A stretch of 32,000 nt of DNA, taken from Candidatus Saccharimonadota bacterium. GTDB taxonomy: Archaea > Micrarchaeota > Micrarchaeia > Micrarchaeales > Micrarchaeaceae. Shown piece by piece: positions 2,752-27,269 of the stretch (the stretch's first letter is position 1; every line of letters begins with the position of its first letter). The notes below the pieces were generated by a model. The model was not told where the DNA came from. It searched no databases and was given only the letters and a program-made list of their open reading frames with translations. Location: assembly GCF_002214165.1 (NCBI RefSeq), contig NZ_CP019964.1:570001-602000 (forward strand), given 5' to 3'. The translations under genes and the position numbers were made by a program.

Positions 2752-4401
2752 TCAATCAGAAAACATCTTGAGCTTTTCAATCTGCTCCTTGGTTGCCTTT
2801 TTGAATATGGGCTTTACCTCTTTGCTGTAATCCAGATTTATGCCAGCATCAAGCAAACCTAATTTGGGCTTGCCCGATATTCCAAAATAATCCAATATGT
2901 CACCGCTTGCCTTAGGCGTAAAAGGATATGAAAGAACGCCTATTGCGTACACCGTATAGATAAGGTTTCCCATGACCTCAGAAAACCTGTTCTTTACTTC
3001 AGTATCGGAAAGGTCCTTCTTCATCTTCCAGGGTTCGGATCCGCTTATAAGGCTGTTCCCCTCCTCTGCCAGGTCTATCAAATCGTGAAGGGCCTCCCTA
3101 AGGCTAATCGATTCAAAGTCGGACTTGTATTTTTCTATTATAGATTTTATTTTGCTTCCGTAATCTTTGGACATTTCTATCCTGCCTATGTGCTCTGAAT
3201 TGGATTTTGCTATCGTCAAGACACGATTGACAAAATTTCCTATCTTGTCATTCATTATCTTGTCAACCACTTCAAGCAAAAGGTCTATTGAGAAATCCGC
3301 ATCAGACGTTTCGGGAAGCCTGTATATCAAGGCGAACCTCAGGTAATCAGGATCCATCACACCAAGCGAATTCTCTACATTCATCCCTATGCCATTGCTC
3401 TTTGAGAATTTTAACCCTCTTGCCGTAAGGTACTCGTATGCTTTTATTGTGTATGGCAGCACAAGATTGTCCATTGAGCCTATAAGTATGCCCGGCCACA
3501 TCATCGTATGGAACTCTATGTTGTCCTTGCCCATAAATTCAATGAGCTTTGTATCTTTTGATTTCCAGTACTGCTCCCATTTGCCTTCATCCCACTCCCT
3601 TGTTATCCCTATGTATCCTATCACTGCATCAAACCAGACATAAAACTTCTTGTCCTTAAAACCTTCCATAGGGACATCGAATCCCCAATCTATATTCCTT
3701 GTTATATCCCTTGGCTTCAATCCCTGTTCAAGATAGCTAAGAGGCTTGTTTATCGCGGTTATGCTCCAGTTGTTGCCCTTTCTGTCATCTATAAAATCCT
3801 TTATCTCCGGCTGCAGCTTTTTCAGGTCTATTGCCAGGTTCTTGGTCTCCTTGAATGATATGTCGGTGCCGCCGCATATCCTGCAGTGCGGCTTTATCAG
3901 GTCTGTAGGATTTAGAAGATGCCCGCAGTTTTCACATTGGTCTCCTCTTGCCTTTTCATATCCGCAGAATGGGCAGGTGCCTTCTATAAAGGTGTCAGCC
4001 AAGAAAAGCTTGTCGGTATTGCAGTATGGCTGTATATCAGTAACCTCTACTATAAAGCCATTTTTGTAAAGCTTGTCAAACAGCCAATATACGGTTTCTT
4101 TGTTCTTTTCCGAATCAGTCTTTCCGTAATAAGTGAAGGTGCATTCAAACCTTGCCATTGCCTCCTTTATCTTTTCATGTACCGATTCCGCCAGCTCCTT
4201 TGGGGTTATGCCTTTCTTTATTGCCTGTATCTCTATTGGGGTGCCGTGCTGGTCTGACCCGCATATGAATATCGCATCTTCGCCTTTCATATCTATGTAC
4301 TTGTAGAATACGTCAGCAGGTAGTATCGACCCTACAAAGTTGCCTAAATGCGGCACCCCTTCTGCATAAGGGAGTGCCGAAGTGATTATATATTTTGACA
4401 T
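2752..4401 (-). CDS. metG: methionyl-tRNA synthetase (core enzyme, no C-terminal tRNA-binding extension)
   Basis: The real start is most likely MSKYIITSALPYAEGVPHLGNF (ATG at 4401). The first 45 codons of the track ORF are a Cys/Phe-rich read-through of the promoter. HIGH-type motif PHLGN, KMSKS-type motif KFSKSNG, and zinc knuckles CPFCGYEKARGDQCENCG and CRICGG are present. Confidence 0.9.
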   Translation of the reverse strand: MSKYIITSALPYAEGVPHLGNFVGSILPADVFYKYIDMKGEDAIFICGSDQHGTPIEIQAIKKGITPKELAESVHEKIKEAMARFECTFTYYGKTDSEKNKETVYWLFDKLYKNGFIVEVTDIQPYCNTDKLFLADTFIEGTCPFCGYEKARGDQCENCGHLLNPTDLIKPHCRICGGTDISFKETKNLAIDLKKLQPEIKDFIDDRKGNNWSITAINKPLSYLEQGLKPRDITRNIDWGFDVPMEGFKDKKFYVWFDAVIGYIGITREWDEGKWEQYWKSKDTKLIEFMGKDNIEFHTMMWPGILIGSMDNLVLPYTIKAYEYLTARGLKFSKSNGIGMNVENSLGVMDPDYLRFALIYRLPETSDADFSIDLLLEVVDKIMNDKIGNFVNRVLTIAKSNSEHIGRIEMSKDYGSKIKSIIEKYKSDFESISLREALHDLIDLAEEGNSLISGSEPWKMKKDLSDTEVKNRFSEVMGNLIYTVYAIGVLSYPFTPKASGDILDYFGISGKPKLGLLDAGINLDYSKEVKPIFKKATKEQIEKLKMFSD

Positions 4402-6587: not shown

Positions 6588-7556
6588 GTGTTGTTTTTGA
6601 GTCTTAAGCTTATAGGTACAAGGCAATTTCTGCAGATTATAATAATGTTCATGATAGTGCAGTTCTTTGGGCTTTTCCTTGTGGCAATACAGTTCAACGG
6701 AATATCTGTGAGCGACATAACAGCAGCCAACGTTGTGAATACTCCGATTACAGCAATCTATTTCGTGATATATATAGTTATAGCGACTGCAATACTGCTG
6801 ATTGTGCTTAAAGTATACCGCAACATTTTCAAGCTTCTTGAGCTTTTTGTTATATTCCTTACAGGTTTTTACTTCTTCATAGAACTCTTCTCGCCTTTTG
6901 AGGTAAGCACAACATCCCTTTACATTGGCATGGTCGTTGCAGGGCTGCTTGGGATAACCTTGATACTGCTGAAAAGGAAATGGCCGAATCTAAGGAACTC
7001 CGTGGCAATAATATCCGCAATAGGATTTGGCACAATATTGGGGATAGGATTCAGCTTTGAAATTGCTCTTGCGTTCATGGCCATAATGGCGGTATACGAT
7101 TTCATATCGGTATTCGTGACCAAGCATATGCTTACATTAGCGAATACCGCGATAGAGAACAACCTCGCCCTGCTTGTTGATTCTACAGAAGTGGAAGCGG
7201 TGCCAAGGTCCGAATTATCCGCGGAGCAGCTGAAGGAATATGAGCAGAACGAGAAAGAGGCGTCAAAGAAAAGCAAAACCCACCTGTTTGAGGTATTCGA
7301 CAAGCAGGGCTATGCAGAAGTTCCCACAAGCAGTGCTTTGGGTACTGGAGACATGATATTCCCTCTGATGGTTGCGGTATCCGCATTCAAGGTAAACTAC
7401 AATTTCATACTTCCAATGTTCATAGTGATGGGTTCAATATTCGGAATGCTGTTCACAATGTTCCTATTGAACAGGTACAAGAGGGCCCTTCCGGCCATAC
7501 CACCATTGCTTTTCGGAATACTGATATTCCTGCTAATATATCTATTGATATTCTGA
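6588..7556 (+). CDS. presenilin/signal-peptide-peptidase family (A22) intramembrane aspartyl protease homologue
   Basis: Polytopic membrane protein with the family signature in order: AVYDFISVF (YD), LGTGDMIFP (GxGD) and KRALPAIPP (PAL-like). A charged loop (SELSAEQLKEYEQNEKEASKKSK) separates the two catalytic helices. It starts 2 nt after the mcm stop. The start codon is uncertain (GTG 6588 or ATG 6645). Confidence 0.75.
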   Translation: MLFLSLKLIGTRQFLQIIIMFMIVQFFGLFLVAIQFNGISVSDITAANVVNTPITAIYFVIYIVIATAILLIVLKVYRNIFKLLELFVIFLTGFYFFIELFSPFEVSTTSLYIGMVVAGLLGITLILLKRKWPNLRNSVAIISAIGFGTILGIGFSFEIALAFMAIMAVYDFISVFVTKHMLTLANTAIENNLALLVDSTEVEAVPRSELSAEQLKEYEQNEKEASKKSKTHLFEVFDKQGYAEVPTSSALGTGDMIFPLMVAVSAFKVNYNFILPMFIVMGSIFGMLFTMFLLNRYKRALPAIPPLLFGILIFLLIYLLIF

Positions 7557-8120: not shown

Positions 8121-9368
8121 ATGAATGGTTATACAAACAACATGGATTCCACAAGAGCCTATAAATTCAGGATCTATCCAGATACTAAAAGGCAGAATGA
8201 GATAGATGAAAGGCTAATACTTGCGCAGCAGTTCTACAACAGGATTCTTGAGAAGTCAATCGCATCCTACCAGAACGGAAAGAGAAAAGTCTCGATGGCA
8301 CAGTTCAACAGGTTCATCAAAGAAATAATCCAAGAAGACAAGAAATACCTGAAACTATACTCGCAGACGAGATGCGAGATTGAATATAGGCTTCTCAAGG
8401 CATATCAAAACTTCTTCAGGAGAATCAAGGAAGGAAACAGGAAGGCAGGATTCCCGAGATTCAGGTCAAGGGACAGGTACAAGTCAATAACATATCCTCA
8501 GTACAATGGCTCTTTCTCGATAAAGAGGGGCAGGCTGAGAGTCTCAAGGATAGGCACAATGAGGATAGAATTGCATAGGAAGATTGAAGGCACAATAAAG
8601 ACGCTTGCGATAAAGAGAGAGGGAAGAAATTATTATGCTGTTCTTACCACACTAAACGAAATCAAAACCCCACAAGTGGAGGACACAAATCCAATCGGAA
8701 TAGACATGGGATTGAATTCATTCGTTGCAATGTCAGATGGAACAAAAATAGAAAAGCCGAAATTCATGCAACAGGAAAGAAAGAGGATTGCGCGTTGGCA
8801 GAGAATAGTCGCACGAAGAAACAAAGGTTCAAAGAGAAGGGGGAAGGCAAAAATACATCTCCAAAATACATACGAATATTCGACAAACCAGTCGGACGAC
8901 TACTTGCATAAACTGTCAGATAAACTCGTAAATTCAGGATATACCTCATTCGCAGTAGAGAAACTCAACATTCAGAATATGGTAAAGAATCATAGATTAG
9001 CAGGTTCGATACAAAACGTTTCATGGAACAGGTTCATCCAAATGCTCTCATACAAGGCTGAAAGTGCTGGTATGAAAGTAATAAAAGTAGATTCAAGGGA
9101 CACGACGCAGGAATGCAGCAACTGCCACCATATAAAGGAAGGCAGTGAAAGGTTGACTTTAGGAGACAGGTTATACCGCTGCAACGTCTGCGGACTGGAA
9201 ATTGACAGAGATATAAATGCATCAATAAACATATTGCACAGAGCAACTACCCTCGGACAGAGGGAAAGTCACGCTCGGGGAGAGAGTGTAAGGCCTCAAA
9301 GGGAGGCAGTTCTCGCTGAACTGAGAACCGATAAAACACATCCTTTGCGGGATGTGGTGTTTGTATGA
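8121..9368 (+). CDS. tnpB: TnpB (OrfB_IS605) RNA-guided nuclease
   Basis: N-terminal AYKFRIYPDTKRQNEIDERL (OrfB N-terminal HTH pattern). RuvC residues in IGIDMGLNSF, FAVEKLNIQNM and IDRDINASINI. Zinc finger CSNCHH...CNVCG lies between RuvC-II and RuvC-III. Confidence 0.9.
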   Translation: MNGYTNNMDSTRAYKFRIYPDTKRQNEIDERLILAQQFYNRILEKSIASYQNGKRKVSMAQFNRFIKEIIQEDKKYLKLYSQTRCEIEYRLLKAYQNFFRRIKEGNRKAGFPRFRSRDRYKSITYPQYNGSFSIKRGRLRVSRIGTMRIELHRKIEGTIKTLAIKREGRNYYAVLTTLNEIKTPQVEDTNPIGIDMGLNSFVAMSDGTKIEKPKFMQQERKRIARWQRIVARRNKGSKRRGKAKIHLQNTYEYSTNQSDDYLHKLSDKLVNSGYTSFAVEKLNIQNMVKNHRLAGSIQNVSWNRFIQMLSYKAESAGMKVIKVDSRDTTQECSNCHHIKEGSERLTLGDRLYRCNVCGLEIDRDINASINILHRATTLGQRESHARGESVRPQREAVLAELRTDKTHPLRDVVFV

Positions 9369-11303: not shown

Positions 11304-12203
11304 ATGAAGTCCCAATCCGCAATGGAATACCTGATGACATACGGATGGGCAATCCTCATAATTGCAATCGTACTTGCTGCATTATACTCTATAGGAATCT
11401 TCAACCCAAACACATTTGCCCCAAAAGCATCTGCAGGATCATGCGAGGTTGTCAGGCCTTCAGGTCCAGGGACGACTAGCGATCTGGGCCTTGAGGGGAC
11501 ATGCACCAACATGCTTCCAAAATACGTCAGCGTTTTCAATGGCCAAAATATATATGCAAATGCTAATTTAAGCAGGGTATTTAAGGACGAAGGGCAGCCT
11601 TTCACTATAACTATATGGCGATATAATGAAAAAGGGACAGATTGCGAGGATAGTGAATTGAGGTTAACCTCAAATGGTCATTCATTATTTAGAGCTGGGT
11701 TATCAGGAACCGGTGGACTTGATAGTTTTCCTGCAAATGATGAAGAAATGTTTGAACTTTGGAATAATAGCGGTTCACAGTATAATTACTTCGGAAATAA
11801 AAGCACAAACTTAAACACGTGGTACTTTTTGACATTTACATATAATGGAAGCTATGTAAAAGCATATATTGACGGAAATCCGGATTTGAACGAAGACTTT
11901 GGCAAGACTAACACCGGAGGAAATATAATCAGGTTCGGCACAGATTTAGGCACTGGGTGCAATGATTTATTTGACGGGATGATGGCAAATGTGCAGATAT
12001 ACAATACGGCCTTATCCACCGGCCAAGTGGAACATCTTTACCAGGAAGGTATAGGCGGAGACCCTATTGATCTCACGCATCTTGTCGGATGGTGGCCGTT
12101 TAATGGCAATGCGAATGACTATTCTGGAAATGATTATGATGGTAAAGTATCCGGTACAATAGGTTATTCCTCAACCTGGTATACGGCATACTCTGCACCA
12201 TAA
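11304..12203 (+). CDS. class III signal peptide (type IV pilin-like) + LamG/ConA-like domain protein, core type A
   Basis: The N-terminus MKSQSAMEYLMTYGWAILIIAIVLAALY is a short polar leader, a QSAME motif and a hydrophobic helix, which is the archaeal class III signal. LamG_3 hallmark strands are FTITIWRYN, NTWYFLTFTYNGSYVKAYIDGNP and GMMANVQIYNTALSTGQVEHLY. It carries the family C-module ...GGDPIDLTHLVGWWPFNGNANDYSGN...YSAP. Confidence 0.85.
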   Translation: MKSQSAMEYLMTYGWAILIIAIVLAALYSIGIFNPNTFAPKASAGSCEVVRPSGPGTTSDLGLEGTCTNMLPKYVSVFNGQNIYANANLSRVFKDEGQPFTITIWRYNEKGTDCEDSELRLTSNGHSLFRAGLSGTGGLDSFPANDEEMFELWNNSGSQYNYFGNKSTNLNTWYFLTFTYNGSYVKAYIDGNPDLNEDFGKTNTGGNIIRFGTDLGTGCNDLFDGMMANVQIYNTALSTGQVEHLYQEGIGGDPIDLTHLVGWWPFNGNANDYSGNDYDGKVSGTIGYSSTWYTAYSAP

Positions 12204-12307: not shown

Positions 12308-13570
12308 ATGAACATCGAGAACGCTATACTAAGGTATAAAGATTATGGCAAAGGCGTAAAGTTGATAGATAGAGATGCAACTTTATCAAAAGCCAATTTT
12401 ATTAACTCCCTAATTGGTCCTAGAAGAGCAGGTAAAAGTTCAATAATGCTATTGTATATGAATGAACTGCGCAAAGAAAACAAAAAAGTCATTTTTATAA
12501 ATGGCGAAGATATAGATTTTGAAGGCTTGACTGTAGAGGGTTTAGATAAAATAGAAATTGAGATAAGGCGCATATACGATATAAGTTCACAAGAAAAAGT
12601 ATACTTGTTCATAGACGAGATTCAAAATTTTCCTTATTGGTCAAAATGGGTAAGGACATTGTTTGATGAAAATTATTATAATCTAATTATATCTGGATCA
12701 ACTTCGGAATTATCGGGAGAACAATTGCCAATACAACTCAGGGGAAGATCAATAGAAACATTAGTGCTGCCTTTTTCTTTCAAGGAATACTGCAAAGCAA
12801 AGCATATAAATTATGAAAAATATATGAATTTTGAGGATACTGCGTCAATATTAAATGCATTTTCAGATTTTATGCTATATGGAGGATATCCCGAGGTTGT
12901 AAAATCAGATGATACCGAATTCAAGAAACAGATACTATCAAACATATATACTATGGTCATGCAAAAAGATCTCATAGATAAATATAATATAAGGAAAAAA
13001 GCGGAATTTAGATTGTTCACAAATTCATTATTTGCATCTGCATGCAGAAATTTTTCAATAGAAAATATGCTGAAATTTTTAAGCAGTAAGGAATTAAATA
13101 TTAGTAGACAAGCAGCCTTGAACTACCTAGACTATTCAGAGTCTGTATTTTTAATACATCTAATTTACCCGTATTCTAAAAAGCTAAAGGTGCGCCTTAC
13201 CAACCCCCGCATCTATCCAATTGATCAGGGCATCATGAGATTATTTACCAATGATGATGGGAAATCACTAGAAGATATAGCATTCATAGAGTTGTTCAGG
13301 AGAAAGGAAAATGTAATGTATTACAAGTCAAATAAAAGCGATGTTGATTTCGCCGTTGTAGAAAGTGACGAGATAAAAGAACTGATACAGGTTAGCTATT
13401 CTATAGATGAACCTAATGCTTATATTAGGGAGACAGATTCATTGAAAAATGCGTCCAAAGAAACAGGGTGCACAAACTTAAAGATTCTAACTTTTAATGA
13501 AGAGAGTGTAATAAAGATAGAAAATTTATCAATCAATGTTATCCCTGTATGGAAATGGCTTTTGAGTTAA
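12308..13570 (+). CDS. AAA_14 / DUF4143-family ATPase (COG1373-like)
   Basis: Walker A GPRRAGKSS and Walker B LFIDEIQNFPYW, with the typical 400-aa-class architecture and a C-terminal DUF4143-like region (FIELFRR...DFAV). Confidence 0.8.
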   Translation: MNIENAILRYKDYGKGVKLIDRDATLSKANFINSLIGPRRAGKSSIMLLYMNELRKENKKVIFINGEDIDFEGLTVEGLDKIEIEIRRIYDISSQEKVYLFIDEIQNFPYWSKWVRTLFDENYYNLIISGSTSELSGEQLPIQLRGRSIETLVLPFSFKEYCKAKHINYEKYMNFEDTASILNAFSDFMLYGGYPEVVKSDDTEFKKQILSNIYTMVMQKDLIDKYNIRKKAEFRLFTNSLFASACRNFSIENMLKFLSSKELNISRQAALNYLDYSESVFLIHLIYPYSKKLKVRLTNPRIYPIDQGIMRLFTNDDGKSLEDIAFIELFRRKENVMYYKSNKSDVDFAVVESDEIKELIQVSYSIDEPNAYIRETDSLKNASKETGCTNLKILTFNEESVIKIENLSINVIPVWKWLLS

Positions 13571-13630: not shown

Positions 13631-14491
13631 ATGAAGTCCCAATCCGCAATGGAATACCTGATGACATACGGATGGGCGATCCTTGTCATTGCAATTGTCC
13701 TTGCAGCACTTTATTCTTTAGGTATATTCAATCCAAGCACATTTGCTCCAAAAGCATCCGCAGGTTCCTGCGAGGTTGTACGACCTTTCGGTCCAACCAC
13801 AAGTACTGATGTTCATCTTGAGGGAACGTGCACCAACATGCTTCCTAAATATGTTGCAAGTTTCAATGGAGCTGATAGTGGCATAACAATAAGTTCACCA
13901 TCTGAATTTCCTGCCAGTTCTGAGCCAGGAATAAGTATTTTTGTTTGGATAAAAACAACAAGATCTAGCGAGGGTGTGTTTGAGTACTATTCCCCGTCAA
14001 ACAATATATGTGAAGGTAGTGTAAGATTAGAAGTATCCCCTAAACTACAAGCAGATTTTTCATGTGATGCTATATCTAATGGACCAGTGTTAGACAACAA
14101 CACTTGGAATTTTGTTGGTTGGACTCTTAAGAGCGGTACATCTAAGGTAATACTTTATGTAAATGGAATACCATATGGTCCATATCAAATTACCCCAATC
14201 AACGTTCCCACAACTGGCTTAGAAGGGTTAATAGGTGCTCCATATCCTGGTTGGCCATATTATTATGGTTCAATGTCAAATGTTCAACTTTACAACACAG
14301 CTCTTTCATCAAATCAAATTACTGCTCTTTACGATGAAGGTATCGGAGGTGATCCAATTGATTTACAAAATCTTGTTGGCTGGTGGCCACTTAATGGCAA
14401 TTCAAACGACTATTCTGGGAATAATAACAACGGAAAAGCAACAAATATCGCATATTCATCAACTTGGTACAGAACATATTCCGCACCTTAA
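13631..14491 (+). CDS. class III signal peptide + LamG/ConA-like domain protein, core type B (array copy 1)
   Basis: Same N-module (MKSQSAMEYLMTYGWAILVIAIVLAALY...EGTCTNMLPKYVA). LamG strands ISIFVWIKTT, NTWNFVGWTLKSGTSKVILYVNGIP and GSMSNVQLYNTALSSNQITALY. C-module ends ...YSAP. It differs from copies 2-4 by I22V and S57T. Confidence 0.85.
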   Translation: MKSQSAMEYLMTYGWAILVIAIVLAALYSLGIFNPSTFAPKASAGSCEVVRPFGPTTSTDVHLEGTCTNMLPKYVASFNGADSGITISSPSEFPASSEPGISIFVWIKTTRSSEGVFEYYSPSNNICEGSVRLEVSPKLQADFSCDAISNGPVLDNNTWNFVGWTLKSGTSKVILYVNGIPYGPYQITPINVPTTGLEGLIGAPYPGWPYYYGSMSNVQLYNTALSSNQITALYDEGIGGDPIDLQNLVGWWPLNGNSNDYSGNNNNGKATNIAYSSTWYRTYSAP

Positions 14492-14590
14492 TTAATCAGA
14501 AAATTAAATCCAATAAAGTTTCGATTAATGGTACTGCCAAATAATTTTCAATATTCAATTATAGTACTCACGGAATTCAATTAATAAGGT

Positions 14591-15604: not shown

Positions 15605-16465
15605 ATGAAGTCCCAATCCGCAATGGAATACCTGATGACATACGGATGGGCAATCCTTGTCATTGCGGTTGTTCTTGCAGCATTATACTCTTTAGGTATA
15701 TTCAATCCAAGCACATTTGCTCCAAAAGCATCCGCAGGTTCCTGCGAGGTTGTACGACCTTTCGGTCCAACTACAACAACGGATGTTCATCTTGAGGGAA
15801 CGTGCACCAACATGCTTCCTAAATATGTTGCAAGTTTCAATGGAGCTGATAGTGGCATAACAATAAGTTCACCATCTGAATTTCCTGCCAGTTCTGAGCC
15901 AGGAATAAGTATTTTTGTTTGGATAAAAACAACAAGATCTAGCGAGGGTGTGTTTGAGTACTATTCCCCGTCAAACAATATATGTGAAGGTAGTGTAAGA
16001 TTAGAAGTATCCCCTAAACTACAAGCAGATTTTTCATGTGATGCTATATCTAATGGACCAGTGTTAGACAACAACACTTGGAATTTTGTTGGTTGGACTC
16101 TTAAGAGCGGTACATCTAAGGTAATACTTTATGTAAATGGAATACCATATGGTCCATATCAAATTACCCCAATCAACGTTCCCACAACTGGCTTAGAAGG
16201 GTTAATAGGTGCTCCATATCCTGGTTGGCCATATTATTATGGTTCAATGTCAAATGTTCAACTTTACAACACAGCTCTTTCATCAAATCAAATTACTGCT
16301 CTTTACGATGAAGGTATCGGAGGTGATCCAATTGATTTACAAAATCTTGTTGGCTGGTGGCCACTTAATGGCAATTCAAACGACTATTCTGGGAATAATA
16401 ACAACGGAAAAGCAACAAATATCGCATATTCATCAACTTGGTACAGAACATATTCCGCACCTTAA
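15605..16465 (+). CDS. class III signal peptide + LamG/ConA-like domain protein, core type B (array copy 2)
   Basis: Protein identical to copies 3 and 4. Motifs as for 13631..14491. Confidence 0.85.
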   Translation: MKSQSAMEYLMTYGWAILVIAVVLAALYSLGIFNPSTFAPKASAGSCEVVRPFGPTTTTDVHLEGTCTNMLPKYVASFNGADSGITISSPSEFPASSEPGISIFVWIKTTRSSEGVFEYYSPSNNICEGSVRLEVSPKLQADFSCDAISNGPVLDNNTWNFVGWTLKSGTSKVILYVNGIPYGPYQITPINVPTTGLEGLIGAPYPGWPYYYGSMSNVQLYNTALSSNQITALYDEGIGGDPIDLQNLVGWWPLNGNSNDYSGNNNNGKATNIAYSSTWYRTYSAP

Positions 16466-16564
16466 TTAATCAGAAAATTAAATCCAATAAAGTTTCGATT
16501 AATGGTACTGCCAAATAATTTTCAATATTCAATTATAGTACTCACGGAATTCAATTAATAAGGT

Positions 16565-17578: not shown

Positions 17579-18439
17579 ATGAAGTCCCAATCCGCAATGG
17601 AATACCTGATGACATACGGATGGGCAATCCTTGTCATTGCGGTTGTTCTTGCAGCATTATACTCTTTAGGTATATTCAATCCAAGCACATTTGCTCCAAA
17701 AGCATCCGCAGGTTCCTGCGAGGTTGTACGACCTTTCGGTCCAACTACAACAACGGATGTTCATCTTGAGGGAACGTGCACCAACATGCTTCCTAAATAT
17801 GTTGCAAGTTTCAATGGAGCTGATAGTGGCATAACAATAAGTTCACCATCTGAATTTCCTGCCAGTTCTGAGCCAGGAATAAGTATTTTTGTTTGGATAA
17901 AAACAACAAGATCTAGCGAGGGTGTGTTTGAGTACTATTCCCCGTCAAACAATATATGTGAAGGTAGTGTAAGATTAGAAGTATCCCCTAAACTACAAGC
18001 AGATTTTTCATGTGATGCTATATCTAATGGACCAGTGTTAGACAACAACACTTGGAATTTTGTTGGTTGGACTCTTAAGAGCGGTACATCTAAGGTAATA
18101 CTTTATGTAAATGGAATACCATATGGTCCATATCAAATTACCCCAATCAACGTTCCCACAACTGGCTTAGAAGGGTTAATAGGTGCTCCATATCCTGGTT
18201 GGCCATATTATTATGGTTCAATGTCAAATGTTCAACTTTACAACACAGCTCTTTCATCAAATCAAATTACTGCTCTTTACGATGAAGGTATCGGAGGTGA
18301 TCCAATTGATTTACAAAATCTTGTTGGCTGGTGGCCACTTAATGGCAATTCAAACGACTATTCTGGGAATAATAACAACGGAAAAGCAACAAATATCGCA
18401 TATTCATCAACTTGGTACAGAACATATTCCGCACCTTAA
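17579..18439 (+). CDS. class III signal peptide + LamG/ConA-like domain protein, core type B (array copy 3)
   Basis: Protein identical to copy 2. Confidence 0.85.
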   Translation: MKSQSAMEYLMTYGWAILVIAVVLAALYSLGIFNPSTFAPKASAGSCEVVRPFGPTTTTDVHLEGTCTNMLPKYVASFNGADSGITISSPSEFPASSEPGISIFVWIKTTRSSEGVFEYYSPSNNICEGSVRLEVSPKLQADFSCDAISNGPVLDNNTWNFVGWTLKSGTSKVILYVNGIPYGPYQITPINVPTTGLEGLIGAPYPGWPYYYGSMSNVQLYNTALSSNQITALYDEGIGGDPIDLQNLVGWWPLNGNSNDYSGNNNNGKATNIAYSSTWYRTYSAP

Positions 18440-18538
18440 TTAATCAGAAAATTAAATCCAATAAAGTTTCGATTAATGGTACTGCCAAATAATTTTCAAT
18501 ATTCAATTATAGTACTCACGGAATTCAATTAATAAGGT

Positions 18539-19552: not shown

Positions 19553-20413
19553 ATGAAGTCCCAATCCGCAATGGAATACCTGATGACATACGGATGGGCA
19601 ATCCTTGTCATTGCGGTTGTTCTTGCAGCATTATACTCTTTAGGTATATTCAATCCAAGCACATTTGCTCCAAAAGCATCCGCAGGTTCCTGCGAGGTTG
19701 TACGACCTTTCGGTCCAACTACAACAACGGATGTTCATCTTGAGGGAACGTGCACCAACATGCTTCCTAAATATGTTGCAAGTTTCAATGGAGCTGATAG
19801 TGGCATAACAATAAGTTCACCATCTGAATTTCCTGCCAGTTCTGAGCCAGGAATAAGTATTTTTGTTTGGATAAAAACAACAAGATCTAGCGAGGGTGTG
19901 TTTGAGTACTATTCCCCGTCAAACAATATATGTGAAGGTAGTGTAAGATTAGAAGTATCCCCTAAACTACAAGCAGATTTTTCATGTGATGCTATATCTA
20001 ATGGACCAGTGTTAGACAACAACACTTGGAATTTTGTTGGTTGGACTCTTAAGAGCGGTACATCTAAGGTAATACTTTATGTAAATGGAATACCATATGG
20101 TCCATATCAAATTACCCCAATCAACGTTCCCACAACTGGCTTAGAAGGGTTAATAGGTGCTCCATATCCTGGTTGGCCATATTATTATGGTTCAATGTCA
20201 AATGTTCAACTTTACAACACAGCTCTTTCATCAAATCAAATTACTGCTCTTTACGATGAAGGTATCGGAGGTGATCCAATTGATTTACAAAATCTTGTTG
20301 GCTGGTGGCCACTTAATGGCAATTCAAACGACTATTCTGGGAATAATAACAACGGAAAAGCAACAAATATCGCATATTCATCAACTTGGTACAGAACATA
20401 TTCCGCACCTTAA
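19553..20413 (+). CDS. class III signal peptide + LamG/ConA-like domain protein, core type B (array copy 4)
   Basis: Protein identical to copy 2. Confidence 0.85.
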   Translation: MKSQSAMEYLMTYGWAILVIAVVLAALYSLGIFNPSTFAPKASAGSCEVVRPFGPTTTTDVHLEGTCTNMLPKYVASFNGADSGITISSPSEFPASSEPGISIFVWIKTTRSSEGVFEYYSPSNNICEGSVRLEVSPKLQADFSCDAISNGPVLDNNTWNFVGWTLKSGTSKVILYVNGIPYGPYQITPINVPTTGLEGLIGAPYPGWPYYYGSMSNVQLYNTALSSNQITALYDEGIGGDPIDLQNLVGWWPLNGNSNDYSGNNNNGKATNIAYSSTWYRTYSAP

Positions 20414-20512
20414 TTAATCAGAAAATTAAATCCAATAAAGTTTCGATTAATGGTACTGCCAAATAATTTTCAATATTCAATTATAGTACTCACGGAATTC
20501 AATTAATAAGGT

Positions 20513-21526: not shown

Positions 21527-22417
21527 ATGAAGTCCCAATCCGCAATGGAATACCTGATGACATACGGATGGGCAATCCTTGTCATTGCGGTTGTTCTTGC
21601 AGCATTATACTCTTTAGGTATATTCAATCCTTCTTCTTTTGCTCCAAAGGCATCGGCAGGATCCTGCGAAGTTGTAAGACCCTTCGGTCCAACCACAAGT
21701 ACTGATGTTCATCTTGAGGGAACGTGCACCAACATGCTTCCAAAGTATGTTGCAAGTTTAAATGGCAATGATGGTTACGTATATTCAAATATAAGCAGTT
21801 TACCAGAGGGTAAACAGCCAAGAACAGTTATTGTATGGTTTTATTTGACCGCTGAACCATCAACTAGTAATGGGCAATCTGCAATATTTGCTTATGGTAC
21901 TGCAAATACCTGCGATGAAACCTTTTGGGTTTCTGCAACAACACCAAGTTCTACTTGTGATAACAGTGAATTATTTATTGATAATTGGTGCACATGCCAA
22001 AGTTTTCCAGATGTCCCAACAATTAGTTTAGATCGTTGGTATTTTGTTGCAGACGAATATAATGGAACTTACCAGATTGGTTACTTAAGTGATAATGGTT
22101 CTATTATATCAATCAATTCGCAACAATTAGGAGTTAATACTGGAGAATCTCCTTTTTATATAGGTTACTGGACAGTGAGAGGATATTTTCCAGGCATGAT
22201 TGCCAATTTGCAAATATACAATAAATCCCTTTCATCAAATCAAATTAGTGCACTTTACGATGAAGGCATAGGCGGCGACCCAATCGACCTTACACATTTA
22301 GTTGCATGGTACCCCCTAAATGGCAATGCACAAGATTATTCAGGAAATAATTATAATGGAAAAGCATTCAATGTCTCATATTCCTCAACCTGGTACAGAA
22401 CATATTCCGCACCTTAA
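21527..22417 (+). CDS. class III signal peptide + LamG/ConA-like domain protein, core type C
   Basis: Same N-module; its first 104 nt are identical to array copies 2-4. The core is distinct (RTVIVWFYLT, DRWYFVADEYNGTYQIGYLSDNG, GMIANLQIYNKSLSSNQISALY). The C-module is ...DLTHLVAWYPLNGNAQDYSGNNYNGKAFNVSYSSTWYRTYSAP. Confidence 0.85.
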   Translation: MKSQSAMEYLMTYGWAILVIAVVLAALYSLGIFNPSSFAPKASAGSCEVVRPFGPTTSTDVHLEGTCTNMLPKYVASLNGNDGYVYSNISSLPEGKQPRTVIVWFYLTAEPSTSNGQSAIFAYGTANTCDETFWVSATTPSSTCDNSELFIDNWCTCQSFPDVPTISLDRWYFVADEYNGTYQIGYLSDNGSIISINSQQLGVNTGESPFYIGYWTVRGYFPGMIANLQIYNKSLSSNQISALYDEGIGGDPIDLTHLVAWYPLNGNAQDYSGNNYNGKAFNVSYSSTWYRTYSAP

Positions 22418-24143
22418 TAAATTAATTTTTAATACTTTATAACAAAACAATTCTGATATAATGAAGTCCCAATCCGCAATGGAGTACCTGATGACGTATG
22501 GATGGGCAATCCTTGTCATTGCAGTTGTTCTTGCAGCACTATATTCTCTCGGAATCTTCAATCCAAGCACTTTTGCCCCAAAAGCATCTGCAGGATCATG
22601 TGAGGTTGTCCGGCCTTTTGGTCCGACTACAACTACAGATATCCATCTTGAAGGCACCTGCACCAACATGCTTCCTAAATATGTAGCGCAGTTTAATGGA
22701 AAGGGAAGCACAGGGATAACACTTAACACATATAACTTCAACACTACACCGTTTACAATATCTTTCTGGGAATATTATTTAGGATATACCACTTGTTATA
22801 CATCTAGTAATGGGGGCAATTGCGGTGAAAATGTAACTATGTATATAAATCCTAATAAATGTAGCTCTACCCCTAATTATCTGTGTGTTATAGATTTTGA
22901 CCTTAGAACTACAAGCTTGCATTGGTTTACATGGGATAGGGATATTTTTTACCCAGTCCAAACTGGAAAATGGCTCTTTATTACATGGACTTATAACCCA
23001 GCAAATAAAAACAATATTTCTGCTTACTTAAATGGAAAGTTTGTTGGTGGAAATACAGGCAGCAATGTTGTGTTAGATGGACAAATAGAACTTGGAGAAG
23101 GCGGCAGTATGGGAAGCATAGATGGATATGTATCTAATTTCCAAATCTATAACTCCTCCCTTTCAGCAAATCAAATTAGTGCACTTTACGATGAAGGCAT
23201 AGGCGGCGACCCAATCGACCTTACACATTTAGTTGCATGGTACCCCCTAAATGGCAATGCACAAGATTATTCAGGAAATAATTATAATGGAAAAGCATTC
23301 AATGTCTCATATTCCTCAACCTGGTACAGAACATATTCCGCACCTTAATAAATTAATTTTTAATACTTTATAACAAAACAATTCTGATATAATGAAGTCC
23401 CAATCCGCAATGGAGTACCTGATGACGTATGGATGGGCAATCCTTGTCATTGCAGTTGTTCTTGCAGCACTATATTCTCTCGGAATCTTCAATCCAAGCA
23501 CTTTTGCCCCAAAAGCATCTGCAGGATCATGTGAGGTTGTCCGGCCTTTTGGTCCGACTACAACTACAGATATCCATCTTGAAGGCACCTGCACCAACAT
23601 GCTTCCTAAATATGTAGCGCAGTTTAATGGAAAGGGAAGCACAGGGATAACACTTAACACATATAACTTCAACACTACACCGTTTACAATATCTTTCTGG
23701 GAATATTATTTAGGATATACCACTTGTTATACATCTAGTAATGGGGGCAATTGCGGTGAAAATGTAACTATGTATATAAATCCTAATAAATGTAGCTCTA
23801 CCCCTAATTATCTGTGTGTTATAGATTTTGACCTTAGAACTACAAGCTTGCATTGGTTTACATGGGATAGGGATATTTTTTACCCAGTCCAAACTGGAAA
23901 ATGGCTCTTTATTACATGGACTTATAACCCAGCAAATAAAAACAATATTTCTGCTTACTTAAATGGAAAGTTTGTTGGTGGAAATACAGGCAGCAATGTT
24001 GTGTTAGATGGACAAATAGAACTTGGAGAAGGCGGCAGTATGGGAAGCATAGATGGATATGTATCTAATTTCCAAATCTATAACTCCTCCCTTTCAGCAA
24101 ATCAAATTAGTGCACTTTACGATGAAGGCATAGGCGGCGACCC
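22236..24143 (+). repeat. tandem duplication, 2 copies (plus about 40 bp of a third) of a 931-bp unit
   Basis: CAAATTAGTGCACTTTACGATGAAGGCATAGGCGGCGACCC recurs at 22241, 23172 and 24103 (spacing 931 bp). Gene starts 22461 and 23392 are also 931 bp apart. The unit runs from the 3' module of one LamG gene to the same point in the next. Confidence 0.9.
22461..23348 (+). CDS. class III signal peptide + LamG/ConA-like domain protein, core type D (copy 1)
   Basis: Same N-module but with many synonymous differences from type B and C genes. Core strands are FTISFWEYY, GKWLFITWTYNPANKNNISAYLNGKFV and GYVSNFQIYNSSLSANQISALY. The last 43 aa or so and the downstream spacer are identical to those of 21527..22417. 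Confidence 0.85.
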   Translation: MKSQSAMEYLMTYGWAILVIAVVLAALYSLGIFNPSTFAPKASAGSCEVVRPFGPTTTTDIHLEGTCTNMLPKYVAQFNGKGSTGITLNTYNFNTTPFTISFWEYYLGYTTCYTSSNGGNCGENVTMYINPNKCSSTPNYLCVIDFDLRTTSLHWFTWDRDIFYPVQTGKWLFITWTYNPANKNNISAYLNGKFVGGNTGSNVVLDGQIELGEGGSMGSIDGYVSNFQIYNSSLSANQISALYDEGIGGDPIDLTHLVAWYPLNGNAQDYSGNNYNGKAFNVSYSSTWYRTYSAP

Positions 24144-24279
24144 TATCGATTTAACGAATCTTGTAGGCTGGTGGCCATTGAACGGCAATGCAAACGACTA
24201 TTCAGGCAATGATTATAACGGTAAAGGGGTTGACGTAGGCTATTCACCAACATGGTACAGAACCTATTCAGCGCCTTAA
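23392..24279 (+). CDS. class III signal peptide + LamG/ConA-like domain protein, core type D (copy 2, different C-module variant)
   Basis: Identical to 22461..23348 until GGDPIDLT. It then switches to NLVGWWPLNGNANDYSGNDYNGKGVDVGYSPTWYRTYSAP. Confidence 0.85.
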   Translation: MKSQSAMEYLMTYGWAILVIAVVLAALYSLGIFNPSTFAPKASAGSCEVVRPFGPTTTTDIHLEGTCTNMLPKYVAQFNGKGSTGITLNTYNFNTTPFTISFWEYYLGYTTCYTSSNGGNCGENVTMYINPNKCSSTPNYLCVIDFDLRTTSLHWFTWDRDIFYPVQTGKWLFITWTYNPANKNNISAYLNGKFVGGNTGSNVVLDGQIELGEGGSMGSIDGYVSNFQIYNSSLSANQISALYDEGIGGDPIDLTNLVGWWPLNGNANDYSGNDYNGKGVDVGYSPTWYRTYSAP

Positions 24280-26408: not shown

Positions 26409-27269
26409 ATGAAGTCCCAATCCGCAATGGAATACCTGATGACGTATGGATGGGCAATCCTCATAATTGCAATCGTACTTGCTGCATTATACTCTATAGG
26501 AATATTCAACCCAAACACATTTGCCCCAAAAGCATCTGCAGGATCATGCGAGGTTGTCAGGCCTTCAGGTCCAGGGACGACAAGCAATCTTGGCCGTGAG
26601 GGAACATGCACCAACATGCTTCCTAAGTATGTTGCTTTATTCGATGGAAATGACAATTACATTACATCACCCATCCCTACCAATAAAACAGTTAATGTCT
26701 CTTTCAGCCTTTGGTATCAATCTGATAATTCCAATTACTTTGCACCCTTATTCCTGTTATCTCCCAATGGGGGAGACAATATTGGCTATGGGCTTTATCT
26801 ATCAGATAATGAATTCAATATATTAGAATCAAGCATAAGGTGGATATACACAAGCGAATACATAAACAGCTCAAGGTGGTACAACATAATATTCACCATC
26901 TCACCTGCAAGCGGCGGAGATGTAGTATACTCAATTTACTTAAACGGGAAGAGGTTATACGTTTCTGGTCCTGAATCCCCCTCCTACCGCCCAGCCGATG
27001 AAATGAGAATAGGGAATGATCCCGGAAACGGAGATTACTTAGAAGGAATGATGGCAAATATGCAGGTTTACAATATAGCGTTATCACAGGGCCAGGTCAA
27101 TGCACTTTACCAGGAAGGCATAGGAGGCGACCCGATTGACTTGACGCATTTAGTTGCTTGGTACCAATTGAATGGCAATGCAAACGACTATTCAGGCAAT
27201 GATTACAATGGCAATGCAATTAATGTAGAGTACTCATCAACTTGGTACAGGACCTATTCTGCACCTTAA
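26409..27269 (+). CDS. class III signal peptide + LamG/ConA-like domain protein, core type E
   Basis: The N-module variant (ILIIAIVLAALYSIGIFNPNTF...PSGPGTTS) is shared with 11304..12203. Core strands are VSFSLWYQS, SRWYNIIFTISPASGGDVVYSIYLNGKRL and GMMANMQVYNIALSQGQVNALY. C-module ends ...YSAP. Confidence 0.85.
   Translation: MKSQSAMEYLMTYGWAILIIAIVLAALYSIGIFNPNTFAPKASAGSCEVVRPSGPGTTSNLGREGTCTNMLPKYVALFDGNDNYITSPIPTNKTVNVSFSLWYQSDNSNYFAPLFLLSPNGGDNIGYGLYLSDNEFNILESSIRWIYTSEYINSSRWYNIIFTISPASGGDVVYSIYLNGKRLYVSGPESPSYRPADEMRIGNDPGNGDYLEGMMANMQVYNIALSQGQVNALYQEGIGGDPIDLTHLVAWYQLNGNANDYSGNDYNGNAINVEYSSTWYRTYSAP

Follow-up and report, generated by a model that had tools for sequence, protein, structure and literature searches.

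In a 32,000-nucleotide stretch of the genome of Candidatus Mancarchaeum acidiphilum (Mia14; Micrarchaeota, DPANN), hereafter the window, nine paralogous genes encode pilin-like proteins whose heads are LamG_3 domains with a displaced terminus. The present analysis establishes, at the level of sequence, that these heads are circularly permuted: the conserved module at the C-terminus of each protein corresponds to the beginning of an ordinary LamG_3 unit. Taken together, the evidence makes it probable that each gene product is a type IV pilin-like protein with a circularly permuted LamG_3 head, in which the module completes the β-sandwich of its own molecule. The permutation is a newly described detail, on a gene family that has already been published; our literature search found no description of either the permutation or the C-terminal module.

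Results

Nine paralogs share one architecture and one C-terminal module

The nine open reading frames (ORFs; 286–299 aa) all lie on the plus strand and align in one common architecture (Table 1). Residues 1–72 are near-identical across the copies (MKSQSAMEYLMTYGWAIL..., followed by a two-cysteine segment), and directly after the pilin-like helix region all nine heads start at KYV..[FL][ND]G. The ~130 residues in the middle of the head are hypervariable, and the C-terminal third is conserved, ending in ...EGIGGDPIDL..LV[GA]W[WY].[LF]NGN..DYSGN...G...YS.TWY..YSAP-stop. Six-frame regular-expression searches of the window returned exactly nine matches for each of three patterns: the core W[WY].[LF]NGN..DYSGN (all on the plus strand and close to a stop codon), YSAP-stop, and KYV[AS].[FL][ND]G. 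This agrees with a preliminary description of the locus, in which a module common to the nine genes and a head starting at KYV..FNG had been noted. The literal C-terminal pattern proposed there was too strict and had no match, while its relaxed core occurs in 9/9 paralogs. Copies 2–5 read L-Q-N-LV and not L[VT].LV, copy 9 replaces WYPL by WYQL and NGK by NGN, the end of copy 1 is TAYSAP with one extra residue, and copy 8 has YSPTWY. The segment on which that description centered, 14340–14491, comprises residues 237–286 and the stop codon of gene 13631–14491, that is, the linker and the module.

The module is kept in 120/120 of the best database homologs (43–69 % overall identity) and in all 118 family ORFs from 80 Micrarchaeota loci. 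In those ORFs it always follows the helix, never precedes the body, and forms the very C-terminus in 116. At least 567 family loci were found, nearly all of them in Micrarchaeota. Conservation in the 120 best homologs and in 118/118 family ORFs argues that the module is neither a chance similarity nor a local oddity.

The LamG_3 heads are circular permutants

When the profile of the native pilin head (112 sequences) was compared by hhalign with a profile of 137 canonical units, two local alignments were obtained in swapped order, one pairing query positions 6–165 with template positions 49–212 (P 99.8 %, E 4e-28, score 178), the other pairing 171–205 with 5–39 (P 97.7 %, E 1.6e-12, score 82). 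With the module moved ahead of the body, the two merged into a single full-length alignment (4–211 with 6–212, 201 columns, E 1.5e-39, score 248), the behavior that distinguishes a circular permutant. The position of its single 5-residue gap, at the YSAP/LPxYVA junction, indicates that the new termini lie in the canonical β2–β3 loop. The pilin tail S.WY.GY.AP stands in place of the canonical T.DRFGN..s, and in the alignment the tail of the 13631–14491 product, TWYRTYSAP, is the counterpart of the canonical T.DRFG loop.

Canonical proteins were sampled from the library with the protein P0123 as query, which yielded 58,485 representatives; the top 150, all giant tandem LamG_3 proteins, entered a set of 151. 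Hidden Markov models (HMMs) of the pilin body and the pilin module found 824 bodies and 533 significant module matches (median 23 bits, maximum 38.8) in this set, and the module matches end flush with the next body (median normalized gap −3). Of these proteins, 111/139 have a module ahead of the first body and 2/126 have one after the last body; 21 proteins end no more than 20 residues past the last body. Pilin heads do not show this canonical order, in which β1, an Asn/Gly-rich (N/G) loop and β2 stand right before the FDG strand. In the tandem proteins the linkers ahead of the module span 0–50 residues, many of them rich in Pro and Thr; a variable linker before the module and a flush junction after it indicate that the module is part of the downstream body in ordinary proteins.

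Further proteins were compared individually. An Aeromonas plasmid LamG protein begins MATLSDLIQATAGLLAYWPLNSNGNDLSGNNRH..., with the motif at residues 14–32 (pilin module HMM, 19.8 bits, E 2.8e-8); a Bacillus plasmid protein matches the artificially permuted pilin head over residues 3–210 in a single piece by tblastn; and P0123 has GLLAYYPFNGNTNDASGNGFNAT 38 residues before its FNG strand, its chain ending 4 residues past the helix. A library search with the Bacillus LamG domain returned three proteins, P0123 among them, and a tblastn search of phage genomes gave weak partial matches only. Collectively, these comparisons support homology of the C-terminal module to the N-terminal β1, N/G-rich loop and β2 of ordinary LamG_3 units. 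The preliminary description had seen in the module the first strand of a LamG_3 domain, which is right as to its N-terminal origin and too narrow as to its extent, since the module spans two strands and a loop. Its proposal of a circularly permuted fold is borne out, so far as sequence can tell, by the hhalign comparison and the order statistics. The reason offered, that the N-terminus is occupied by the pilin helix, is insufficient: the helix could equally be fused ahead of β1, and the idea that it forced the permutation was rejected as an argument of necessity.

Domain-model boundaries hide part of the fold

The Pfam model PF13385 (Laminin_G_3) matches residues 79–230 of the 13631–14491 product with profile positions 1–150 of 151, and the six distinct paralogs score 39.6–65.3 bits (cut-off 27.6), the matches running from profile positions 1–13 through 150–151 of 151. 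The model starts at the FDG strand and omits the preceding part of real proteins. A complete canonical LamG sandwich upstream of the module, which the preliminary description had named as evidence against a permutation, is thus found by Pfam boundaries only and not by those of a real canonical unit. The Pfam match was unchanged in permuted constructs because PF13385 begins at the FDG strand, and the module alone had no match in Pfam or NCBIfam.

Chain boundaries of solved structures show the same N-terminal extension. Solved LamG_3-type chains end 3–8 residues past the helix and have ~40 more N-terminal residues than pentraxins: 4qvs_A and 5hon_A have ~65 residues ahead of the TisaW strand, and 4c1w_A matches from residue 20–25. 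In contrast, pentraxins (PTX3, CRP, SAP-like, NP1) have ~26–30 residues before that strand and ~30 past the helix; the C-terminus was checked for SAP (...ENILSAYQG-TPLPANILDWQALNYEIRGYVIIKPLVWV).

The module likely packs in cis

Monomers were modeled with AlphaFold2 (AF2) for full-length copy 1 and head-only copy 9, using alignments of 112–113 sequences. The body is predicted at a local confidence (predicted local distance difference test, pLDDT) of 85–96, and a strand is formed at residues 248–252, in a block with pLDDT ~70 in full-length copy 1 and 86 in head-only copy 9 (predicted template modeling score, pTM, 0.79). Because strands assigned by DSSP need partners, the AF2 model appears to pack the module in cis. 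The linker that leads to this strand is 11 residues long in 112/112 family members.

Residue couplings were derived by mean-field direct coupling analysis (DCA) of 716 canonical units (effective number of sequences, Neff, ~686; gaps excluded). They join β2 to β3 (36L–48Y, rank 4; 37T–47A; 34A–48Y), β1 to the last strand, just before the helix, and to the neighbor of that strand (11A–194Y, 13Y–194Y, 8G–196R, 11A–173I), the DRFG loop to the start of the last strand (40R–190D), and the helix end to the last strand (192R–209E). With both the helix end and β1 coupled to the last strand, the helix end should lie near the β1 slot, a distance for which an 11-residue linker is ample. Foldseek assigned a probability of 1.00 to pentraxins, PAPP-A LG, neurexin LNS, 4dqa and 5hon. 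The best matches were pentraxins, covered over their whole length (SAP, target-normalized template modeling score [TMt] 0.75, root-mean-square deviation 3.3, 217 columns for 204 residues; CRP and PTX3, TMt ~0.73), and they are consistent with a pentraxin-like strand order.

One Micrarchaeota homolog (L060, JAJYXH010000052.1; ORF from locus position 3968, 667 aa) carries a complete pilin, head and module (...TWYSNYQQP), followed by a long S/T-rich linker and ~300 aa of 'YYAPISSTGIGTWT..TPYP' repeats that look propeller- or Kelch-like. The presence of a domain beyond the module suggests that body and module behave as a closed unit for which a free C-terminus is not required. Completion in cis of the same molecule's sandwich is the best-supported structural reading, and we regard it as likely. 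The preliminary description had proposed a relocated strand acting in this way; the monomer models agree for the strand at 248–252, which lies in a sheet, and have low confidence for the loop and β2.

The module could alternatively fill the open sandwich of a neighboring subunit, so that donated or swapped strands would cross-link the heads along the filament. The body alone starts at β3 and has an open edge without the module, the GIGG linker is rich in Gly, no other part of the protein is as conserved as the module, and strand donation is established in archaeal filaments such as tafi (PMC12337348, PMC11821415). Moreover, cis and swapped contacts look alike to coevolution and to monomer AF2. 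Against such a swap, the AF2 monomer is satisfied with the module present in cis, the 11-residue linker suits the short distance suggested by the couplings and would be near its limit in reaching another ~215-aa sandwich, the N-terminal helix already gives a polymerization principle, and L060 has a further domain past the module. In addition, two strands and a 14-residue loop form a larger element than the single strand donated in the known filaments of that type. On this evidence we consider polymerization by domain swap unlikely. If swapped modules interlocked the LamG heads of neighboring subunits in covalent-like fashion, a type IV pilin-like filament would gain a second polymerization principle, orthogonal to the helix bundle; improbable as this is, it would be without precedent among type IV filaments. 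A related possibility is that the module is an interchangeable cassette that sets which heads can pair, given the breakpoints at its start (below).

The module is under purifying selection and behaves as a cassette

The C-terminal region of the six distinct paralogs has a ratio of nonsynonymous to synonymous divergence (dN/dS) of 0.12–0.14 at a synonymous divergence (dS) >1.4; its conservation therefore reflects selection on the protein and not recent conversion alone. β1 and the N/G loop are the most conserved stretch of the family (0.92), followed by the pilin helix (0.88), the linker (0.83), the stalk (0.74) and the variable part of the body, residues 81–210 (0.31). These values bear on the idea that the module is a vestige, the start of a lost second LamG_3 domain, without structural function and either disordered in the mature protein or absent from it. 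Its sequence is indeed the start of a LamG_3 unit with nothing after it, the AF2 confidence is low for the loop and tail, and one homolog has tandem LamG bodies (L055, below). Nevertheless, a remnant is at odds with the low dN/dS at saturated dS, the fixed linker length, the retention of the module throughout the family ORFs and best homologs, and an upstream body that has no β1 or β2 of its own. The conservation of the module largely refutes a vestigial origin of this kind, which we regard as very improbable.

A further reading concerns the extreme C-terminus. All nine copies end in YSAP and the last Pro is near-invariant in the family, so that the end ...W..[GT]Y[ST][AP]P might be read by sortase-like or glycosylation machinery as a sorting, processing or anchoring signal, as the preliminary description also considered. 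Archaeosortase-type signals are marked by a hydrophobic or basic segment, and the sequence has no such segment at the C-terminus. The tail aligns instead with the internal β2–β3 loop and ends 5 residues past the junction, some homologs end in ...QYGK or ...TWTK, and L060 continues into another domain. A C-terminal signal is accordingly a highly unlikely explanation.

DNA identity among the nine paralogs is 76–98 % over nt 1–235, 31–50 % over nt 240–650 and 62–83 % over nt 650–858, with sharp transitions. This cassette-like profile is reminiscent of pilin and adhesin variation systems with conserved recombination flanks. Genes 22461–23348 and 23392–24279 are identical over nt 1–752 and have 40 differences within nt 753–882, which is exactly the relocated module. 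Genes 21527–22417 and 22461–23348, with unrelated bodies, agree completely in their last 180 nt and in the 43-nt spacers downstream. The mosaic pattern places recombination breakpoints at the module boundary, the module behaving as a separate cassette.

Three side observations touch on the module and its history. One homolog (L055, JAJZAJ010000002.1; ORF from locus position 6765, 694 aa) begins with a different class III-like sequence, SAQIAVEF..., and carries an additional domain in its N-terminal part. It has two LamG bodies, one module following body 1, another preceding body 2 and a further one at the last residues of the ORF in the fetched stretch, and may be related to the tandem precursor of the permuted head. 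A 321-aa homolog (P0009) has an internal duplication of the helix end, linker and β1 (...ALYQEGIGGAPIDLQHLVGWWPLNGNANEIQTLYQEGIGGVPIDLQHLVGWWPLNGNANDYSGN...), which marks this region as prone to slippage or unequal recombination. Finally, the N/G-rich loop NGNANDxSGNGNNG, predicted by AF2 at low confidence, is strongly conserved in both bacterial-type units (P0123–P0273) and pilins, and the pattern of its Asn and Asp residues suggests that it binds a metal or ligand.

The N-terminus resembles that of a type IV pilin

Class III signal motifs are defined by a FlaFind-type pattern, with a helix of ~20–25 residues at the mature N-terminus. The N-terminus of the paralogs (MKS/QSAMEYLMTYGWAILVIAIVLAALY) fits a short basic leader, a [KR][GAS] cleavage motif, Glu at +5 and a hydrophobic helix. 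Relative to the predicted cleavage site, K or R stands at −2 in 105/113 homologs and S or A at −1 in 93/113, and AF2 predicts a helix at residues 6–30 (pLDDT ~91). These features suggest class III signal cleavage before QSAMEY, with pilin processing and assembly. Of the stalk that follows, AF2 predicts strands at 46–49 and 65–68 with low confidence. One FlaK-like peptidase and two type IV pilus (T4P) loci, some linked to LamG genes, are reported in passages of the genome paper (PMC5498576).

Genomic context

Housekeeping genes (MCM, aminoacyl-tRNA synthetases, XPD helicase) surround the pilin genes. The first pilin paralog is flanked by a TnpB gene and an AAA_14/DUF4143 ATPase gene, consistent with the published genomic-island placement of the LamG locus. 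Upstream, directly after the MCM helicase gene, stands a presenilin-type signal-peptide peptidase, which we take to belong to a different family from prepilin peptidases. Between 13631 and 21526 the window contains four head-to-tail 1974-bp units, each consisting of a pilin gene and an MNT/HepT toxin–antitoxin pair (166-aa nucleotidyltransferase, PF18765; 139-aa HepT-like RNase, PF01934). Units 2–4 show 100 % identity to one another, and unit 1 deviates from them at 11 positions; repeats this perfect may reflect either very recent amplification or a problem of the assembly. The pilin 3′ ends are overlapped, out of frame or on the opposite strand, by ORFs of 86 and 119 aa, which are most likely spurious and recur because the underlying pilin sequence is repeated.

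Table 1. Positions of the pilin paralogs, of the parts of one of them and of neighboring features in the window
Feature	Position	Strand	Details
Pilin paralog gene	11304–12203	+	
Pilin paralog gene	13631–14491	+	
Pilin paralog gene	15605–16465	+	
Pilin paralog gene	17579–18439	+	
Pilin paralog gene	19553–20413	+	
Pilin paralog gene	21527–22417	+	
Pilin paralog gene	22461–23348	+	
Pilin paralog gene	23392–24279	+	
Pilin paralog gene	26409–27269	+	
Putative class III (prepilin-type) signal peptide and hydrophobic pilin-like helix	13631–13750	+	Residues 1–40, MKS/QSAMEY...
Stalk segment	13751–13846	+	Residues 41–72; invariant C47, C67; two short predicted strands
LamG_3 body	13847–14338	+	Residues 73–236; β3 to last strand and C-terminal helix
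Linker GIGGDPIDLQN	14339–14371	+	Residues 237–247; from helix to relocated strand
Relocated β1 (LVGWWPL) and N/G-rich loop (NGNSNDYSGNNNNG)	14372–14434	+	Residues 248–268
Relocated β2 (KATNIAYSS), tail TWYRTYSAP and stop	14435–14491	+	Residues 269–286
Module of paralog 11304–12203	12060–12203	+	47 codons and stop; alignment, regular expression
Module of paralog 15605–16465	16325–16465	+	Alignment, regular expression
Module of paralog 17579–18439	18299–18439	+	Alignment, regular expression
Module of paralog 19553–20413	20273–20413	+	Alignment, regular expression
Module of paralog 21527–22417	22277–22417	+	Alignment, regular expression
Module of paralog 22461–23348	23208–23348	+	Alignment, regular expression
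Module of paralog 23392–24279	24139–24279	+	Alignment, regular expression
Module of paralog 26409–27269, WYQL variant	27129–27269	+	Alignment, regular expression; head modeled with AF2
Presenilin-type signal-peptide peptidase	6588–7556	+	PF06550, E 1.7e-22
TnpB/OrfB_IS605 (Cas12f-like TNB domain)	8121–9368	+	
AAA_14/DUF4143 ATPase	12308–13570	+	
86-aa ORF overlapping pilin 3′ end	14235–14495	+	
86-aa ORF overlapping pilin 3′ end	16209–16469	+	
86-aa ORF overlapping pilin 3′ end	18183–18443	+	
86-aa ORF overlapping pilin 3′ end	20157–20417	+	
119-aa ORF overlapping pilin 3′ end	22385–22744	−	
119-aa ORF overlapping pilin 3′ end	23316–23675	−	

Discussion

A model for the permuted pilin

The results suggest a protein composed of a class III signal peptide, a hydrophobic N-terminal helix, a short disulfide-braced stalk and a ConA-like or pentraxin-like LamG_3 β-sandwich head. 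An ordinary unit runs from β1 (LvaYyPF) through the N/G loop (NGNANDxSGNGNNG) and β2 into the body, which begins with the FDG strand and ends with the last strand and a short helix. The pilin chain instead enters the fold at the FNG strand (β3) and passes through the body and the helix, then through the 11-residue linker (GIGG[AD]PIxLxx) into β1, the loop and β2, ending 5 residues "past" the point at which the head started. As judged from the couplings in canonical units, β1 would lie beside the last body strand and β2 beside β3, which is the pentraxin strand order. The permutation likely arose by duplication, two LamG_3 units in tandem on a pilin stalk having been trimmed at both ends. The helix may anchor the subunit in a T4P-like fiber or in the membrane, in which case the conserved base, formed by the stalk, β3, the last strand, the helix, the linker and the module, would serve as a scaffold near the filament or membrane. 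The hypervariable ~130-residue middle would then be the exposed binding surface of diversified adhesins for contact with the Cuniculiplasma host; an adhesin function of the heads is what this arrangement suggests.

Several observations weigh against this interpretation. The N-terminal 80 residues had no Pfam or NCBIfam match at E up to 10 and no match among PDB sequences; HMMER filters readily overlook short signal models. The residue at −1 in these pilins is Ser, not Gly or Ala. The window has no T4P machinery gene (prepilin peptidase, T4P ATPase), and neighborhood clustering of 80 loci found no conserved neighbor, T4P machinery included, next to the homologs. Within the head, AF2 assigns the N/G loop a pLDDT <50 and the β2 strands at 269–271 and 274–276 values of 50–67, and the packing in cis is deduced only from AF2 confidence and secondary structure, a monomer prediction being blind to domain swap. 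When PDB sequences were searched with the C-terminal 72 aa, the module profile and a permuted profile, the N-terminal strands of solved LamG_3-type chains were not matched; the solved structures gave length and boundary evidence only. Lastly, the query with which the canonical proteins were sampled, P0123, itself carries the N-terminal motif; the terminal-unit statistics are independent of that.

The permuted heads represent a clean, gene-encoded circular permutation of a very abundant bacterial and archaeal adhesion domain, fixed across a phylum of host-dependent DPANN archaea. The permutation alone reveals no new mechanism. It does show that Pfam boundaries hide ~40 residues belonging to the fold, and it defines construct boundaries for these candidate host-attachment adhesins, from about residue 44 or 73 to the C-terminus. 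The family also illustrates from nature how duplication and truncation lead to permutation, and a possible tandem relative persists. Furthermore, the division between a conserved scaffold and a hypervariable face marks the place to look for host specificity in the Mancarchaeum–Cuniculiplasma association.

Comparison with known systems

The bacterial-type LamG_3 units (those of the tandem giants P0124–P0273 and of P0123) belong to the same sequence family as the pilin body and module, and share with the pilin heads the N/G loop, the last strand v.IYN.aLS..EI..LY and the helix. In these units the module stands before the FDG strand, the linkers are variable and the β2–β3 loop reads T.DRFG. In contrast, the pilins have the module after the helix, a linker fixed at 11 residues, the end S.WY.GY.AP-stop and an N-terminal pilin-like helix.

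Pentraxins (SAP, CRP, PTX3; PF00354) are the best structural matches (TMt 0.73–0.75) and have the same apparent order of body, helix and ~30 further residues, which in pentraxins form the two terminal strands. They differ from the pilins in that their terminal strands have no detectable sequence similarity to the module, the profile alignments stopping at the helix, and in that they form ring oligomers and lack a pilin helix. The window proteins had no PF00354 match at E up to 1, and precomputed PF00354 matches exist for only 2/120 of the best homologs. The resemblance is thus one of fold and strand order, not of sequence. The preliminary description spoke of a new architecture for pilin-like proteins. 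That holds for the permutation as a described detail, for which our literature search found no publication, and less so for the rest, as the strand order already occurs in pentraxins and the LamG expansion was published in 2017.

Concanavalin A, compared with other legume lectins, is a natural circular permutation of the ConA-like jelly roll, a fold in which the termini are adjacent. Concanavalin A is permuted post-translationally, by transpeptidation, whereas in the pilin heads the gene itself encodes the permuted order, with the new termini at another point of the fold, the β2–β3 loop.

Among archaeal proteins, the DPANN LamG-like proteins listed as arCOG07813 (PMC7414124) are the same genes or gene family as the pilins of the window. 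Passages of two papers report their expansion in Mia14, with a genomic-island location and a link to T4P loci, in 2017 (PMC5498576), and an expansion in Undinarchaeales (PMC7414124); a role in host-cell contact has already been proposed for these proteins. Neither the permuted order nor the C-terminal module is mentioned in these passages.

In haloarchaeal Tat-fimbriae, the proposed tip subunit TafC has an outward laminin G-like head proposed to be adhesive (PMC11821415). Like the pilins, it is an archaeal filament subunit that joins an assembly module to a LamG-like head. The two differ in that TafC is secreted by the Tat route and is assembled through donation of an N-terminal strand, whereas the pilins have a class III signal and helix. 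The TafC profile (NCBIfam NF052521) gave a weak match to the pilin (E 1.5e-6, 27.6 bits, against a family cut-off of 410 bits). With one of two permuted constructs this match reaches profile position 173 instead of 195, an earlier start that hints at a canonical order in the TafC head. TafC is the closest functional analogue of the permuted pilins and not a member of their family.

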